Source: Acinetobacter phage vB_AbaM_14/CRR8. Taken from it: a stretch of 64,000 nt of DNA. The translations under genes and the position numbers were made by a program. Under the pieces are notes generated by a model. The model saw only the letters and a program-made list of their open reading frames with translations. It was not told the DNA's origin and did no database searches. Positions 12,339 to 62,970 of the stretch are shown here, piece by piece (within the stretch, counting starts at the first letter, position 1; every line of letters begins with the position of its first letter). The stretch is taken from sequence record PV611675.1; one strand, written 5' to 3'.

Positions 12339-12593
12339 TTGATTAAAAATAAACTTATTAAGTTTGGGGCATCATGGTGTGCTCCTTGTAAAGCTGCAAG
12401 TAAATTCCTTTCCCAATTTGATTCTGAAAAATATATAGAAATAGATGTCACAAATGATGTTGACTTAGCAGAAAAATTCAGTGTCAAACAAATCCCTACA
12501 TTCGTATTAGTGAATGCCAATGGAGATGAGATTGATAGATTCTCTTCATTCAATCCAGCTCTTGTCAAACAAGCAATTGAAAAGATCAAGTAG
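12339..12593 (+). CDS. thioredoxin-like redoxin (84 aa, WCAPC active site), TTG start
   Basis: motif FGASWCAPCK and the thioredoxin-fold length; AGAGG RBS; followed by a terminator. Confidence 0.65.
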   Translation: MIKNKLIKFGASWCAPCKAASKFLSQFDSEKYIEIDVTNDVDLAEKFSVKQIPTFVLVNANGDEIDRFSSFNPALVKQAIEKIK

Positions 12594-47531: not shown

Positions 47532-47960
47532 TTGGAAATTACAAAGCTTAAATATAAACTAGCTTTTATGGGTATGGCTAAAGTCTTCGCAAAGACATCT
47601 GAAGCAAAGAGACTTCAAGTAGGTGCTTTAATTGTGAAGAATAAGCAGATCATATCTACAGGAGTAAATGGTACACCAGCTGGATGGGAAACAAACAATT
47701 GTGAGAACTCAAACAATGAGACAGAATGGTTTGTTAGACACGCAGAAGTTCAGGCATTAAACAAATTAAGAAAATCACACGAGACATCTATTGGGGCTGA
47801 AATGTATATTACGCACAGCCCTTGTAAGAATTGTGCTGTCGAGATTATCGATGCTGGAATTTCTAAAGTTTACTATGACATTGACTATAGAGATTCAACT
47901 GGGATTGAACTACTTAAAAAGTATGGGATTCGAGTTGAAAAACTTCAGGAGGTTAAATGA
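47532..47960 (+). CDS. dCMP deaminase (142 aa from the TTG start 6 nt after AAGGAGG)
   Basis: zinc motifs HAEVQAL and SPCKNCA (HxE...PCxxC). Confidence 0.75.
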   Translation: MEITKLKYKLAFMGMAKVFAKTSEAKRLQVGALIVKNKQIISTGVNGTPAGWETNNCENSNNETEWFVRHAEVQALNKLRKSHETSIGAEMYITHSPCKNCAVEIIDAGISKVYYDIDYRDSTGIELLKKYGIRVEKLQEVK

Positions 47961-56973: not shown

Positions 56974-57590
56974 TGGATTTCGGAATTGTTCAAGAGGAAA
57001 CTAAGGGTAAATCGATAGATTTCTCCAAGGTGTCTGATAAAGACCTCAAGCAATTTCTCACCTGCACTAAGCATGTATTTAAATCTGAGTCGGCATTTTT
57101 TACTTGGGTTCGTAGTGGTTTAAGACAAGGTCTTTGGATGAAACACCCGATCAAGATGGAAATGCTCAATTCTCAGAGATATAAGATCAAGAACCCTAGA
57201 CCAAATCCACGTAAAGGTTCAGAGTTGGTGTGGGGTTATGATTGTGCATGTTGTGGTGGTCAATTTACAGCACCAAACGTAGAAGTTGATCATATTGTTG
57301 GTGAACACAGTTTGAAGACAATTGAAGATGTAGTTACTTTCTTTAAGAAAATTATGTTAGTGACTCCATCCGATTTACAAATTGTTTGTAAAGAATGTCA
57401 TGCTATCAAAACTTATGCTGAGCGATATGGTGTTTCTGAGAAGAAAGCAAGAGCTATTAAGAAAGCTATCGCTGCTGTTAAAGATGGCATACATCAAGAG
57501 GAACTTGAGAGGTTAGGTGTTAAGAAATTAGTACCTAAGACAAAGGCTAGAGATATGCTTGCCGATCTCTATGAAAGAGAGGATACATAA
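56973..57590 (+). CDS. HNH endonuclease (205 aa)
   Basis: CACCGG...EVDHIVGEH...CKECHAIKT, a zinc-liganded HNH motif. Confidence 0.65.
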   Translation: MDFGIVQEETKGKSIDFSKVSDKDLKQFLTCTKHVFKSESAFFTWVRSGLRQGLWMKHPIKMEMLNSQRYKIKNPRPNPRKGSELVWGYDCACCGGQFTAPNVEVDHIVGEHSLKTIEDVVTFFKKIMLVTPSDLQIVCKECHAIKTYAERYGVSEKKARAIKKAIAAVKDGIHQEELERLGVKKLVPKTKARDMLADLYEREDT

Positions 57591-58786
57591 TGTACGACTA
57601 CTGGCCTCAATGTAGTCTCTATCACCAGCGATATTACATTCAACATGCTAAGGATATGGAATACAAACATGGCTTGGTAGTTGGCGGTAAATATAGAAGG
57701 AAGACAGGGGAGTTATATTTCTTTAGCCACCAGTATCTATGTGATTTCTTTTACATAAATGCTGAAACTATGCGTAAAGAACACGACTACCCTTCCAACT
57801 TCGTCGTAGAGGAGGATACTTTGAAGGTATTTGAAGAATTAAAACATTGGAAACAGAAGGCATTATACATGCATATGTTCCAAGGAAAAACTGGAGCACA
57901 TATTAGTAGGGAATTGAATATTCCTGAACGTACTGTACAAGATAACCTTAAAAAGCTTAAAGGTAAGATTCGTATTGAGGATATCTATGATCCAGATAAT
58001 GTAGGCAAAAATATTGTTAATGGAGCCAAGATTCTATTCCATGATATTGAAACATCATTGGCGGTATCTTACCACTTTGGACAATGGCAACAAAATTTAG
58101 GTATTAAGCAACAAGTATTTGAAAGTCATTTACTATCACACTCATGGGCTTGGAATGATGGAGAGGTTAAAGGCTCTATCTTAACTCGTGAAGAGGTTCT
58201 TAAACGAGATGATAGCCGATTGGTTATGGAAGTCTGGGCTTTACTAGATGAATGTGATGTTTATGTTGCACACAATGGCAAGAAGTTTGATGTGAAGAAA
58301 TTGAATGGTTTCTTCCTGAAACACGGTCTCCCACCTCCTTCACCATACAAGGTTGTAGATACACTGCAAATTTCTCGTAATAAGTTTGGACTCCCATTCC
58401 ATAATCTGGCATACTTAGCTAAATTCCTAGATGTTACTCGTAAGATTGACAACTCAGGTATTGAGCTTTGGATTAGTTGTGCTCAAGGTGATCAGGAAGC
58501 TCTTGATGAAATGTTAGAATATAACATTGGTGATATTGTAACTTTACGTGAGGTTTATTACAAAATCATTGGTTGGGATAATAACGGTGTCAATATGGCA
58601 TTGTATCAGCCAGTACAAGGTCTTGTTTGTACGCATTGTGGTAATAACGAGATGATTAGGTTGGTTGGTAAGACAGCTACAACTGTACAGATGAAGTATA
58701 ATGTGTATAGATGTACAAGCTGTAAAGCCCCACACCGTGGAAATACTTTGAATGGTGAAGATACTAAACTGTATCGTATTATCTAA
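57590..58786 (+). CDS. HTH (sigma region 4/LuxR-like) plus DEDDy 3'-5' exonuclease plus C-terminal zinc-ribbon protein (398 aa)
   Basis: HTH: KALYMHMFQGKTGAHISRELNIPERTVQDNLKKL; exonuclease motifs ILFHDIETS, VAHNGKKFDVKKL and YNIGDIVTLREVYY; zinc ribbon CTHCGN...CTSC. Confidence 0.55.
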   Translation: MYDYWPQCSLYHQRYYIQHAKDMEYKHGLVVGGKYRRKTGELYFFSHQYLCDFFYINAETMRKEHDYPSNFVVEEDTLKVFEELKHWKQKALYMHMFQGKTGAHISRELNIPERTVQDNLKKLKGKIRIEDIYDPDNVGKNIVNGAKILFHDIETSLAVSYHFGQWQQNLGIKQQVFESHLLSHSWAWNDGEVKGSILTREEVLKRDDSRLVMEVWALLDECDVYVAHNGKKFDVKKLNGFFLKHGLPPPSPYKVVDTLQISRNKFGLPFHNLAYLAKFLDVTRKIDNSGIELWISCAQGDQEALDEMLEYNIGDIVTLREVYYKIIGWDNNGVNMALYQPVQGLVCTHCGNNEMIRLVGKTATTVQMKYNVYRCTSCKAPHRGNTLNGEDTKLYRII

Positions 58787-58852: not shown

Positions 58853-58868
58853 TAATTTGGAGGATGTT

Positions 58869-59510
58869 ATGTCTAAGCATGTAGAATTTGGTGTTGAAGA
58901 GTTTAATAAGTTTTTGGAACAAGAGTTATATCCAGCTGTATTTGAATTTAATGGGGCATGTGGTAAAGACCCAGAGAAGGTTGAAGATATTGATGATGCA
59001 GCCGAAATGATTTTAAATGAATGTAAGCGTGTGATTGAAGAGTGTGATGAAACAATTGCAGCTTATAAAGCTCGTGATACAAAAGAGCGTTTGGATGGTG
59101 TTGTTGATGTGTATTGGACAAGTGCTCAGTTACAACGATTATTAGATGTGCTTATGGTGAAATTCCCTAATATTATTGCACACATGAAAGAGAATTATGA
59201 GTTTGACGAAGTTCTTCAGTTGAATCATGCTCTTGGTTTGTTCCCTATTGCAATTACGTTAGGTCAAGGTACAATCCTTTCTGGTCATCGTATTGCATTG
59301 GCAGCACGTCGAATTATTGCAAACAACAAACAGAAGTATACCTCTAATATTGAAGAGGCTCTTGACTGGGAGAAACATCGACCTGCTGGTGTTGTACTGC
59401 GTAAGTATGAATATAATGGTCAAGAGTTTTATTGTTTGAAACGTACATCTGATGATTATGTTGTTAAGCCTCATACATTTGAGGATGTAAAATTAGGGGA
59501 CTTAGTATGA
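58869..59510 (+). CDS. MazG-like all-alpha nucleotide pyrophosphohydrolase candidate (213 aa)
   Basis: E/D-rich helical motifs (VEEFNKFLEQE, ECDETIAAYKARD, LDGVVDVYW); weak assignment. Confidence 0.3.
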   Translation: MSKHVEFGVEEFNKFLEQELYPAVFEFNGACGKDPEKVEDIDDAAEMILNECKRVIEECDETIAAYKARDTKERLDGVVDVYWTSAQLQRLLDVLMVKFPNIIAHMKENYEFDEVLQLNHALGLFPIAITLGQGTILSGHRIALAARRIIANNKQKYTSNIEEALDWEKHRPAGVVLRKYEYNGQEFYCLKRTSDDYVVKPHTFEDVKLGDLV

Positions 59511-59890
59511 CAAAGAAGTTGGTACGAGGTCCAGACAGAATACCGCCACCAGAACGTCAAGTAAGCTTTAGTGAGTTGACAGTTGGTGACAAGAAGATTG
59601 AACTTGTCCTCGAAAAATGTGGTGTGGATTTTGTATTGGAGAAACTTTGGGGGTTTGACACTAAACATAAGAGTGGCACACCTGAAGGGTTTTATGAAGT
59701 TAAAGAATGTCAACATAGGAATCGTGATGGAAAAATCGTCACTGGTAAACTTTATATTGGAGTCGAGAGACTTGATGATGAGTGGATTTTACAAGGCGCA
59801 CCGTCCGAAAAAGCTAAGTTGGCTGCAAAGCAAGATTTGTCACTGTACAGAGAACTTTCTAGTATGAGTCGATCAATACAGTCTTGCTAA
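59507..59890 (+). CDS. hypothetical protein (127 aa)
   Basis: AGGGGA RBS. Confidence 0.4.
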   Translation: MTKKLVRGPDRIPPPERQVSFSELTVGDKKIELVLEKCGVDFVLEKLWGFDTKHKSGTPEGFYEVKECQHRNRDGKIVTGKLYIGVERLDDEWILQGAPSEKAKLAAKQDLSLYRELSSMSRSIQSC

Positions 59891-59895
59891 ATGTG

Positions 59896-59921
59896 ATCCA
59901 GCCTTAGTGCTGGATTTTTTG
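59896..59921 (+). terminator. rho-independent terminator
   Basis: atccagc-cttagt-gctggat hairpin followed by tttttt. Confidence 0.7.
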
Positions 59922-59939
59922 TTATATAGGAGTAATAAA

Positions 59940-62846
59940 TTGTCAGGAAAATATACATCAATCTTAATGCAAGAAACGAACTCATATGTTGATAGATTCC
60001 CACAGTTCGTTGATGCAATCACATTCCAAAAGGAGGATTTATTCTGGACTGAGAAAGAAATCAAAGTAGAGAAAGATGAACAAGACTTAAAGCATAACAT
60101 CTTGCATTCTCAAGTTCATGCTCTTATGTTTAACCAACGACTATTCACTAAGTATGAGGATGTCATTGGAAATGATTACTGGATCGGTGTTGTACACAAG
60201 AAATACAAATGTCAAGAGATTCGTCGACTAGCCATTTGTTTTGCTGATGTGGAGAATAATATTCACTTCCCATTCTACCGTCGAGTGAATGAAGTGCTGG
60301 GAACTCATAATGATGAGTTCTATGATGCATTTGAAACAGACCCTATCTTGGTTGAACGTGTCAAATTCATGCAAGAGTTGGTGGCATCGAAAGATACACT
60401 AGCATCAATGGGTGGTTTTGCTTTCATGGAAGGTGCAGTATTATTTACAGCATTTGCTATGATTAAGTCTCTTGGTGTTAAAGGTCAGTCATTTATGCCT
60501 AACTTGATTTCAGGCATTAACATGTCGATCCTTGATGAGAATTTCCACATGCAGACAGCTTGTGAGATTTTCCGCACACAGTTAGAGTTAGAGAATCGTA
60601 CAGAAGAGGATATTAGAAAACTTAAAGAGGATATCTTTAAGCATGCACAGAACGTTTTAGAGCATGAGTACATTATCATTAACGCTATGTTAGCTGAAGG
60701 GGATATTCCTTTTGCTTCTAAAAAGGAACTTCAAGCTTTTGCTCGACATCGTGTTAACGTAGTTTTAACAACTCTTGGATTCCCAGAGTTAGCTACATTT
60801 GATGAGACTGATGATACTATCTCAGAATGGTTCTATGAGTTCATGGGTGGTTATACAAGTAATGATAATTTCTATTCTCGTGGTCGTAACTACAAGAAAG
60901 AGTTCTCTGCTGTTGACTACGACATTATCTCAAATGGTGCTGTTGAAGAAGTCCTTGCACAAATCCCTGATGAGTATTTAGATCAAATGGGCATTGACTT
61001 GAATCGTAAGTTTGAAAAGACTTTAGAAGAAGAGTTGGAAGCCCAACGACCTAAACGTAAGAAGCACAACAATGCTGAGGATGCTTTATATGTTCCAGAC
61101 TATAGTCGTGAACGTAAAGAGATGCAAGCACGTGGTGAAGCTCCTGAGTGGATGGCAACGGCTGGATGGCAGCTATTTAAGAAGAAATACCTCAATGGTG
61201 ATGCTAAAACTCCTAGAGATCAGTACATGCGAATTGCTGAGTGTTTGGCACAGTATGCACCTAAATCTTACCCTTCTTGGTGGAATGAGATTGACTACTG
61301 GAAAGGTAAAACATGGAAAGATGCATTCTTCCAGATCATGTGGGATGGCTTCTTAAGTCCTTCGACTCCTGTACTCTCTAACACAGGTACAGATTTTGGT
61401 ATGTCAGTGTCGTGTTCTGGTGCTGTGACTGAAGATAGTGTTGCTGGCTTCTATGATGCTCGTAAGATTAACGCTTTACTTTCTAAGGAAGGTTTTGGTA
61501 CTACGATTGATTTAGATCGTGTACGTGGACGTGGTAAGCCTATGAAGGGCGGTATCGCAAATGGTGCTCTCCCTGTGGCTCGTATGTTCCGTCAAGATGC
61601 TTTAGATATCAGTCAAGGCTCTCAGCGTCGAGGTGCTACTGCTTGGTACTACAACGTAGAAGGTTTAGACTTTGATGAGTTATTGCACTTCTTAGAATAC
61701 GACACTGATGGTAACAATGGTGGTTGGAAAATTACCAACGAACTTATCAACCGTGTTCTTGTTGGTGATACATTAGCCATTGAACGTATGAACAAAATTT
61801 TAGCTGTACGTCACCATGTCGGTCTAGGCTATGAATTGTTTATTGATAAAGTAAACGCTCGTCGTCCTAAGATGTATAAAGATCGTGGTATGATGGTTAC
61901 TACAAGTAACTTATGTACTGAGATTACACTGTTTAGTGATCCAAAACATACATTTACATGTGTGTTGTCAAGTGAGAACTTAGTACGTTTTGATGATCGT
62001 CCAAAGAACTTGGCATTCGTTGGTACAGTATTCCTTGACTGTGTGGCTGAAGACTTCATTCAGAAAGGTTCTAAGATCGAAGGTCTTGAAACTGCTGTTG
62101 AATTCACTAAGAAAGGTCGTGCTCTTGGTTATGGTACAATGGGCTTCGCTTCATACTTAATGCGTAACAACATCGAGTATGGCTCAATGGAATCATTCTG
62201 GAAGAATAAGAAGATTTACTCTACTATTGAAGCGGAAACAAAAGCAGCTTCTCGATGGTTAGCTAAAGAACTTGGTGAACCAGAATGGTGTGAAGGTTAC
62301 GGTGTTCGTAATACTCACTTGATGGCTATCGCTCCAACTAAGTCTACTGGCTTATTGATGGGTGGTGACTCAGAAGGAATCAACGTTCCATCTGCATTTG
62401 TATTCGCACAAGATACACCTGCTGGTACAGTATTCCGTATTGATCCATCATTCTTGTTACTGTTGAAGCGTAAAGGATTATACAACATTGATCCTGAGAC
62501 TAAGCGTATCACACCTGAAACAGAAGCCTTGTTGAAACGTGTGTCAGATAATTTAGGTAGTGTGCAAACATTAACTGATGTTCTGACAGATAAAGAACGT
62601 GCTGTGTTCAAGACAGCTTATGAAATTAACCAGTACCGTCATATTGATTTGTGTGCTCAGCGTCAAGAACATATTGACCAAGCTCAATCGATCAATTTAT
62701 TCATTGCGAATATGTCGGCTCAAGAGATTTCTAAGTTGTATATGTACGCTGCACTTAACCCTAACATTTTGAGTCTTTACTACCATACTGGTATTCGAGA
62801 TTCACGTATTGGAGAGAGTAAAAATGAATGCGAATCATGTATGTGA
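59940..62846 (+). CDS. class I ribonucleotide reductase, single polypeptide with N-terminal R2 (NrdB-like) domain fused to a cone-less R1 (NrdA-like) catalytic domain (about 968 aa, TTG start after AGGAG)
   Basis: R2 motifs VENNIHFPFY (E-x-x-H-x-x-x-Y), FMEGAVLF and ILDENFH; R1 motifs GMSVSCSG, SNLCTEI, LSLYYH and C-terminal CESC. Confidence 0.75.
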   Translation: MSGKYTSILMQETNSYVDRFPQFVDAITFQKEDLFWTEKEIKVEKDEQDLKHNILHSQVHALMFNQRLFTKYEDVIGNDYWIGVVHKKYKCQEIRRLAICFADVENNIHFPFYRRVNEVLGTHNDEFYDAFETDPILVERVKFMQELVASKDTLASMGGFAFMEGAVLFTAFAMIKSLGVKGQSFMPNLISGINMSILDENFHMQTACEIFRTQLELENRTEEDIRKLKEDIFKHAQNVLEHEYIIINAMLAEGDIPFASKKELQAFARHRVNVVLTTLGFPELATFDETDDTISEWFYEFMGGYTSNDNFYSRGRNYKKEFSAVDYDIISNGAVEEVLAQIPDEYLDQMGIDLNRKFEKTLEEELEAQRPKRKKHNNAEDALYVPDYSRERKEMQARGEAPEWMATAGWQLFKKKYLNGDAKTPRDQYMRIAECLAQYAPKSYPSWWNEIDYWKGKTWKDAFFQIMWDGFLSPSTPVLSNTGTDFGMSVSCSGAVTEDSVAGFYDARKINALLSKEGFGTTIDLDRVRGRGKPMKGGIANGALPVARMFRQDALDISQGSQRRGATAWYYNVEGLDFDELLHFLEYDTDGNNGGWKITNELINRVLVGDTLAIERMNKILAVRHHVGLGYELFIDKVNARRPKMYKDRGMMVTTSNLCTEITLFSDPKHTFTCVLSSENLVRFDDRPKNLAFVGTVFLDCVAEDFIQKGSKIEGLETAVEFTKKGRALGYGTMGFASYLMRNNIEYGSMESFWKNKKIYSTIEAETKAASRWLAKELGEPEWCEGYGVRNTHLMAIAPTKSTGLLMGGDSEGINVPSAFVFAQDTPAGTVFRIDPSFLLLLKRKGLYNIDPETKRITPETEALLKRVSDNLGSVQTLTDVLTDKERAVFKTAYEINQYRHIDLCAQRQEHIDQAQSINLFIANMSAQEISKLYMYAALNPNILSLYYHTGIRDSRIGESKNECESCM

Positions 62847-62939
62847 TATGTACGGACTTGGCAAAGAAGGTTGGTATGGAAAAGAAGCTTGGGACTTGTA
62901 AAAAAGTTGTTGACAAGCTAAAAAGTAATCATTAATATA

Positions 62940-62970
62940 GGGACATGTCTTAGGGCGTGTCCCTTTTTTA
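62940..62970 (+). terminator. rho-independent terminator
   Basis: gggacatg-loop-cgtgtccc hairpin followed by ttttttat. Confidence 0.65.

Follow-up and report, generated by a model that had tools for sequence, protein, structure and literature searches.

A single open reading frame (ORF) of the Acinetobacter phage vB_AbaM_14/CRR8 encodes both the beta (R2, NrdB) and the alpha (R1, NrdA) subunit of a class I ribonucleotide reductase (RNR). The DNA analyzed is a window of 64,000 nucleotides (nt) of this phage (sequence record PV611675.1), and all coordinates are those of the window. The protein consists of a beta core, a beta tail, a linker, and an alpha part without an ATP cone, and it is likely a natural single-chain class I RNR that originated once in Saclayvirus-like phages. 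Sequence comparison shows that both domains are complete, that conservation extends to all the putative metal ligands and to all the residues of the radical pathway and of the redox pairs, and that this is the only RNR of the phage.

The fused gene and its product

The window derives from a Saclayvirus-like Acinetobacter myophage. Phage phi1_092033, which is 99.7% identical, has been placed in the genus Saclayvirus (PMC11984226). An ORF scan revealed a single stop-free frame of 979 codons on the plus strand, from a GTG at 59907 to the end of the stop codon at 62846. The likely start, also chosen in the original prediction, is the TTG at 59940, which follows a Shine-Dalgarno sequence. Since the KYxSI N-terminus following this TTG is conserved in the consensus of the fused homologues, the product is most likely 968 amino acid residues (aa) in length. 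The phi1_092033 annotation begins at the ATG at 59967, giving 959 aa. Residue numbers are counted here from this ATG, and the TTG start adds nine residues.

Ribonuc_red_sm (PF00268) matches aa 20-275 (E 1.5e-30), Ribonuc_red_lgN (PF00317) matches aa 399-477 (E 5e-10), and Ribonuc_red_lgC (PF02867) matches with E 1.6e-65, while the ATP cone (PF03477) has no Pfam match in the fused protein. The original prediction, made from the letters of this DNA, that one continuous ORF of 979 codons carries both class I subunits was thus confirmed; the frame is free of stops, and both halves lie far past their Pfam thresholds. In the Acinetobacter phage MD-2021a, the two subunits are encoded by separate genes, a 341-aa nrdB and a 580-aa nrdA, which overlap at TAATG. 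In the fusion, residues 3-337 correspond to the MD-2021a beta (64% identity) and residues 376-958 to the MD-2021a alpha (58%), and residues 338-375 are unmatched in the split pair. The parts of the fused gene are as follows.

59928..59942, plus strand: Shine-Dalgarno sequence AGGAG (59928-59932), 7-nt spacer, and TTG start codon (59940-59942), from sequence reading
59940..62846, plus strand: fused nrdB-nrdA coding sequence, 968 aa and stop (ORF, Pfam, phrog_30939 end to end, 20 phage records)
59967..60851, plus strand: beta (R2) ferritin-like core, aa 1-295 (PF00268, residue conservation, Foldseek, and a predicted local distance difference test score (pLDDT) of about 90 in AlphaFold2 (AF2))
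60852..60977, plus strand: beta C-terminal tail, aa 296-337 (aligns with the C-terminus of the stand-alone MD-2021a beta)
60978..61091, plus strand: fusion-specific linker, aa 338-375 (LDQMGIDLNRKFEKTLEEELEAQRPKRKKHNNAEDALY), unmatched in the split pair
61092..62846, plus strand: alpha (R1) catalytic part without an ATP cone, aa 376-959 and stop, 584 aa (PF00317, PF02867, Foldseek)

In the beta core, the putative metal ligands E64, E96, H100, E155, E191, and H194, the radical-site Tyr Y104, and the Trp residue W72 do not vary among 101 relatives, both fused and unfused. The beta motifs are VENNIHFPFY (95-104), FMEGAV (153-158), and LDENFH (189-194). In the alpha part, a motif search located C483 in SVSCSG (480-485), N648/C650/E652 in SNLCTEI (647-653), C665, Y938/Y939 in SLYYH (936-940), and C955/C958 in CESC (955-958). 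All the R2 and R1 motifs quoted in the original prediction are present at the expected places, but VENNIH reads E-x-x-x-H and not E-x-x-H as had been supposed.

It is known that a class I beta requires a conserved Tyr in its flexible C-terminal tail (PMC8463856). In the fusion, the tail Tyr Y309 (in GRNYKKEF) is invariant in the 101 relatives and lies within a segment of low pLDDT (294-310). GRNYKKEF presumably takes the place of the NFFEKRVxEY-type context around the interfacial Tyr (Y356 in E. coli). The tail peptide EFSAVDYDII resembles the acidic/aromatic ends of R2 tails and may be the alpha-binding end. Thus, the protein has the six-ligand ferritin-like beta, the alpha N-x-C-x-E loop, the Cys pairs, the Tyr dyad, and the beta-tail Tyr of class I, but not the separate alpha and beta polypeptides (alpha2beta2), being a single ORF.

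The linker is the most variable part. Its mean identity within the clade of fused sequences is 43%, compared with about 80% for the domains (81% for the beta core and 80% for alpha). Its center is rich in K and E and polymorphic in length by 0-10 aa, with all insertions and deletions (indels) in frame, a pattern of change that fits a tether. The full-length AF2 model has a pLDDT below 50 in residues 363-399, spanning the linker end. A tblastn search with each half turned up no second R2 or R1 gene, neither in the window nor in the remainder of phi1_092033, which bears out the earlier statement that the window has no separate nrdB.

Subclass, metal site, and radical path

The class Id (NrdBi) type of beta is marked by a first ligand that is a Glu and has a Tyr partner in the second sphere, and by a strictly conserved Trp seven residues past this Glu; a Lys at +4 from the first ligand marks the subgroup holding every characterized class Id enzyme, and class Id alpha subunits never carry ATP cones (PMC8463856, PMC6754362). 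Cone-less alpha chains of roughly 565 aa are typical of the NrdAi clade (10.1101/2022.04.23.489257). The fusion has the Glu/Tyr pairing (E64 and Y104, invariant in the 101 relatives) and a minimal alpha of 584 aa without PF03477. In Foldseek, the alpha half matched the class Id alpha structures 6dqw/6dqx (Flavobacterium johnsoniae and Actinobacillus ureae) with a template modeling score (TM) of 0.91-0.94, a root-mean-square deviation of 2.6-2.9 A, and an identity of 30-33%. The structures nearest to the beta half were those of class Id betas and 9dws, a beta from Francisella hispaniensis (TM 0.8-0.88, 19-24% identity). Since the alpha half belongs to the NrdAi/class Id type, the missing ATP cone is normal; the original prediction was right about the absence, which is not a special loss.

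The metal site departs from the class Id pattern. The invariant Trp, W72, lies at +8 from the first ligand and the +7 residue is Tyr or Phe, whereas ExxH relatives retrieved by the same search carry it at +7. The +4 residue is Gly68 in 96 of the 101 sequences and not Lys. Instead of the canonical ExxH, the site reads E96-N-N-I-H100, then x-P-F-Y, and HMMER gaps one residue here in every solved R2. The enzyme is thus called class Id-like and is not filed as a tested member. The ExxxH motif, the Trp at +8, and the Gly at +4 are not specific to the fusion; they are shared by a deep R2 clade of about 75 clusters at 50% identity, some members of which are extended by an ATP cone at the N-terminus or a glutaredoxin at the C-terminus, or carry an intein. 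Relatives further away that the search also retrieved show either the usual NrdBi pattern (ExxH, Trp at +7) or one resembling NrdBk (Asp/Gly/Tyr-Tyr). No description of the ExxxH clade was found in the searched literature, and 'EXXXH' together with RNR gave no literature match. This clade is a large, uncharacterized R2 group related to NrdBi, and it may be a broader lead than the fusion itself. Its sequences (P0121-P0225 and P0228-P0313 in this study) usually have one residue fewer before the third-helix Glu; the corresponding sites in the window are 60249-60278 (aa 95-104) and 60156-60182 (aa 64-72).

Because the beta site departs from every characterized class I enzyme, the assignment of its cofactor is uncertain. 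The N-terminal domain would hold a dinuclear metal cofactor, most likely a class Id-like Mn2. The cofactor that defines class Id is Mn2(III/IV), which is assembled with superoxide and is not accompanied by a stable Tyr radical. That the cofactor is instead something other than the class Id Mn2(III/IV), for example a class Ia-like Fe2-Tyr radical or a novel one, is a real though lesser possibility. Y104 is invariant, the Lys presumed to attract superoxide in the characterized class Id enzymes is replaced by the near-invariant Gly68 beside the ExxxH and the shifted Trp, and it has been noted that Lys-less NrdBi may generate the radical by a different mechanism (PMC6754362). On the other hand, the pairing of a Glu first ligand and a Tyr has been published as the marker of class Id, the nearest structures of both halves are class Id, and the same paper still expects dimanganese in Lys-less NrdBi (PMC6754362).

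The full-length AF2 model has a mean pLDDT of 84.5. Its segments of low confidence are 294-310, 363-384, 390-399, and 945-959. Half-length sequences have left some stray residues at the ends of the underlying alignment, but the pLDDT of the domains is still high.

Several points weigh against reading the protein as a class Id-like single-chain enzyme. The fused enzyme is described here from its sequence and predicted structure. The predicted TM (pTM) of the full-length model is only 0.68, and the domain arrangement is weakly constrained. The combination of ExxxH, Trp at +8, and no Lys is unlike every characterized class I enzyme. The best NCBIfam model for the alpha half, TIGR02510 (NrdE-prime), scores 432.7 bits, below its cut-off of 602.25. 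Finally, residues 311-360 (the tail peptide and the beginning of the linker) have a pLDDT of 82-94 in the full-length model and 54-78 in a beta-only control, whose core stays at 90 or higher, but the control alignment contained no fused homologues, and the comparison is weaker for residues 338-360 on that account. With this reservation, the rise in confidence of residues 311-360 when alpha is present suggests that the model places the tail against the alpha domain of its own chain.

The enzyme may work as follows. Two chains would dimerize via the usual alpha-alpha and beta-beta interfaces into a tethered alpha2beta2. The radical would travel from the cofactor via Y104, the tail residue Y309, and Y938/Y939 to C650. 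The C-terminal CESC would re-reduce the active site and might be recycled by a phage thioredoxin-like protein or by host redoxins. Since an ATP cone is on neither part, no dATP off-switch is expected. The tether would enforce a 1:1 stoichiometry and a high local concentration of the subunits, which would suit rapid phage DNA synthesis.

Does the tail serve the alpha domain of its own chain? The roughly 37 disordered residues (363-399) could span about 100 A or more, and thus docking in cis and in trans are both sterically possible. An active chain with radical transfer in trans, in which the beta tail docks on the partner alpha in a domain-swapped dimer, is conceivable, if somewhat less probable than not. 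Class I holoenzymes are known to be asymmetric with half-of-sites behavior (PMC8463856), which would fit such an arrangement. The gain in confidence of residues 311-360 with their own alpha speaks against it, though weakly, because a single-chain prediction cannot sample trans docking. The original prediction had proposed modeling the full chain to judge cis against a domain swap; the model gave a tail that is confident only with alpha, but left the trans case unsampled for the same reason. It is doubtful that the chain is a self-sufficient single-chain holoenzyme, with the whole radical path in one polypeptide and a beta of an uncharacterized metal-site type (ExxxH, Trp at +8, no Lys), possibly with a cofactor chemistry of its own and thus forming a further class I subclass.

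It is improbable that the ORF yields separate beta2 and alpha2, through cleavage of a polyprotein or from an internal start. The linker is predicted to be disordered and is rich in K and R (PKRKK), hence protease-accessible, and the phage encodes a head maturation protease. However, no conserved cleavage motif is evident, since conservation is lowest in the middle of the linker. An internal start for a free alpha chain is unsupported; the scans found no start with a Shine-Dalgarno-like sequence near the beta-alpha junction and no plus-strand promoter or terminator at it. Moreover, a stop codon would be cheaper for the same outcome, and the sister phages have exactly that. Far less probable still is that beta is a degenerate, non-catalytic remnant and that the phage alpha uses the host NrdB. 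Only the unusual ExxxH spacing would favor this, whereas fused and unfused relatives alike keep the six ligands, Y104, Y309, and the tail peptide, either invariant or conserved, and the beta core is as conserved as alpha in the fused clade (81% vs 80%).

Occurrence and origin of the fusion

Is the single-chain RNR common among phages? A megablast search found the same 2.9-kb gene intact in 20 Acinetobacter phage GenBank records at 88-99.7% nucleotide identity, including phi1_092033, TAC1, Liucustia, Aci01-1, Aci02-2, Aci05, and phiAbaA1; the records go back to KJ628499. In a collection of 5.8 billion proteins, the fusion forms seven clusters of 959-976 aa with at least 73% identity. A 99.7-kb contig of IMG/VR (L009) carries an intact fused ORF of 976 aa. 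PHROG 30939 (977 profile positions), which matches the protein end to end, is this fusion family. The GenBank labels are 'RNR class Ia alpha subunit', 'large subunit', 'ribonucleotide reductase', 'hypothetical protein', and once 'deoxynucleoside kinase'. The sequence is thus not new to the databases, but the fusion is unrecognized there. The annotation of the genus is inconsistent; OP917929.1 (vB_AbaP_HB01) names the fused RNR 'deoxynucleoside kinase', and CP14 and Acba_22 name it 'hypothetical protein'.

A sequencing, assembly, or annotation artifact, in which a stop or frameshift between an ordinary nrdB and nrdA was missed, can be dismissed, even though the nearest relatives have separate, overlapping genes and metagenomic oddities such as the chimeric P0227 (see below) exist, because the frame is uninterrupted in 20 independently sequenced isolates and seven clusters (73-100% identity), no linker indel shifts the frame, and the 38 additional coding residues amount to more than a stop-codon difference. 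The frameshift concern raised in the original prediction is thereby ruled out.

The next-nearest alpha sequences are stand-alone 580-aa proteins (57-60% identity), and the nearest beta sequences outside the fusion are stand-alone proteins of 330-363 aa (61-69%). In neighbor-joining trees of each half, the seven fused sequences are monophyletic in both halves, beside a large unfused group, and the sister group of the fused clade consists of phages with separate, overlapping nrdB and nrdA genes. Since the fused clade is monophyletic for both halves, a single fusion event in a beta-then-alpha operon is indicated. The beta-then-alpha order occurs in 70 of 104 NrdAi loci (Burnim et al. preprint, 10.1101/2022.04.23.489257). 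The ancestor would have carried nrdB and nrdA side by side and overlapping, both from a phage lineage related to NrdAi/NrdBi (class Id-like), and the fusion may have arisen by the loss of the beta stop codon and the gain of about 38 linker residues. In summary, the fusion is real and gives a known enzyme a new architecture, which arose once, in one phage lineage.

Other fusions were sought by phmmer with the beta half against 1.84 billion representatives, a search that reaches only relatives detectable by beta. No other beta-alpha fusion was found among the best 150 of 453 matches. P0227, a metagenomic protein of 829 aa, was rejected as a second fusion; only its residues 1-212 are R2-like (81% identical to the fusion beta), about 600 unrelated low-complexity residues follow, and it is probably a chimeric assembly. 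The matches of 410-440 aa and 550-660 aa are not alpha fusions but R2 proteins that are extended by an ATP cone or a glutaredoxin or interrupted by a LAGLIDADG intein. Among the stand-alone relatives, LAGLIDADG/intein insertions were found in five alpha sequences (P0095, P0096, P0105, P0107, and P0110) and one beta sequence (P0236), and the fused clade is free of them. Split phages have a 76-aa glutaredoxin-like gene directly after nrdA (MD-2021a; 6808-7038 in contig L002). The fused phages have no such gene at the locus; they have instead a thioredoxin-like gene (12339-12593) 47 kb away.

Gene neighborhood and comparison with known systems

The features outside the fused gene that bear on its expression and function are as follows.

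59895..59916, plus strand: terminator-like hairpin with an 8-bp stem, then a T-run, ending the upstream gene (hairpin scan and sequence reading)
62939..62964, plus strand: terminator-like hairpin with an 11-bp stem, then a T-run, 3' of the fused gene (hairpin scan)
12339..12593, plus strand: thioredoxin-like gene, candidate reductant of the CESC pair (Pfam Thioredoxin, E 5.1e-11)

The two hairpins flank the fused gene on the plus strand, and the gene may thus be a separately terminated transcription unit. A promoter-like TTGACA-17-TAATAT at 62910-62938 directly adjoins the downstream hairpin. The thioredoxin-like gene and the dCMP deaminase gene (47532-47960) named in the original prediction were both verified by Pfam, and phi1_092033 annotates the counterpart of the former as 'thioredoxin domain protein'. 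The phi1_092033 annotations further list, as labels only, thymidylate synthase, dihydrofolate reductase, deoxynucleoside monophosphate (dNMP) and thymidylate kinases, phosphoribosyl pyrophosphate (PRPP) synthetase, and nicotinamide phosphoribosyltransferase. The RNR and the annotated genes form a self-contained module for deoxynucleoside triphosphate supply, as is also noted in PMC12893723. Some labels near the RNR look unreliable; the 127-aa ORF directly upstream (59507-59890, 'thymidylate synthase' in phi1_092033) and the 217-aa ORF at 58857-59510 ('MazG-like pyrophosphatase') have no Pfam match at E<0.01. The 398-aa ORF at 57590-58786 ('DNA polymerase exonuclease subunit') has RNase_H_2 and weak sigma-70 region 4/GerE-type helix-turn-helix matches. 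RNase_H_2 with a faint sigma-70 region 4 match recurs in the syntenic gene of a divergent contig of the fused clade (L004).

The transient association of the subunits has long hampered structural work on the active class I complex. The published picture of class I RNRs is one of two separate homodimeric subunits that associate weakly and transiently, an association that gates long-range radical transfer (PMC8463856), and artificial alpha and beta-tail fusions were built to stabilize the complex (PMC11067019). A natural and conserved fusion would show that the two-subunit arrangement is not obligatory. It would provide a stoichiometric, tethered holoenzyme of a minimal cone-less lineage, a candidate for cryo-electron microscopy and radical-transfer studies, and it would allow a clean complementation test of cis against trans. 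I know of no class Id holo-complex structure; none was among the Protein Data Bank (PDB) matches here, which were not a systematic search. The finding also highlights a large R2 clade whose metal-binding motif is altered and which has gone unstudied. Saclayvirus phages are therapy candidates against carbapenem-resistant A. baumannii, and their RNR is misannotated as class Ia alpha or hypothetical.

In agreement with the original prediction, which knew of no such fusion, no natural full-length beta-alpha class I fusion was found described in a search of 8 million full texts, a collection without subscription-only papers and RNRdb. The papers on these phages do not comment on the RNR architecture. 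The 'NrdBA' of a 2013 phage-RNR survey was considered as a possible fusion but denotes operon order.

The nearest characterized systems are the class Id RNRs of F. johnsoniae, A. ureae, and Leeuwenhoekiella blandensis (6dqw, 6dqx, 6cwq, and 6sf4/5olk). The fusion shares with them a cone-less alpha of about 570-580 aa, the beta fold, the Glu/second-sphere Tyr, and the beta-then-alpha order, and its Ser187 lies at the position of Thr191 of F. johnsoniae. It differs in being one polypeptide, in having ExxxH for ExxH and Trp at +8 for +7, and in having Gly for Lys71 (F. johnsoniae) or Lys174 (L. blandensis). The split MD-2021a pair and about 85 metagenomic relatives belong to the same lineage and have the same ExxxH site, tail motif, and gene order. 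Unlike the fusion, the split pair is two genes overlapping at TAATG, with no linker and with the glutaredoxin-like gene directly downstream.

Covalent links between RNR parts have been reported in other forms. In the engineered PhotoRNR chimeras of the E. coli class Ia enzyme (PMC11067019; PDB 8vhu), alpha is covalently joined to the beta tail, which places the interfacial Tyr beside the alpha Tyr dyad. These chimeras are artificial, in the order alpha-then-tail, with 35 beta residues and no metal domain, whereas the phage fusion is natural, in the order beta-then-alpha, with the whole beta. Reassembly of a split NrdA has also been reported in the literature. The natural ATP-cone-NrdB of L. 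blandensis and the glutaredoxin (Grx)-ATP-cone-NrdB of Facklamia ignava have accessory domains on beta, but their catalytic subunits are not joined. These natural fusions are evidence of how readily the RNR lineage takes up additional domains; members bearing an ATP cone, a Grx, or an intein occur in the same R2 clade. In the eukaryotic class III NrdD-NrdG fusions (PMC3019208), as in the phage gene, a single ORF encodes a catalytic subunit together with the partner that generates its radical. These class III fusions differ in using a glycyl radical and a radical S-adenosylmethionine activase, which acts catalytically and not as a stoichiometric radical store.

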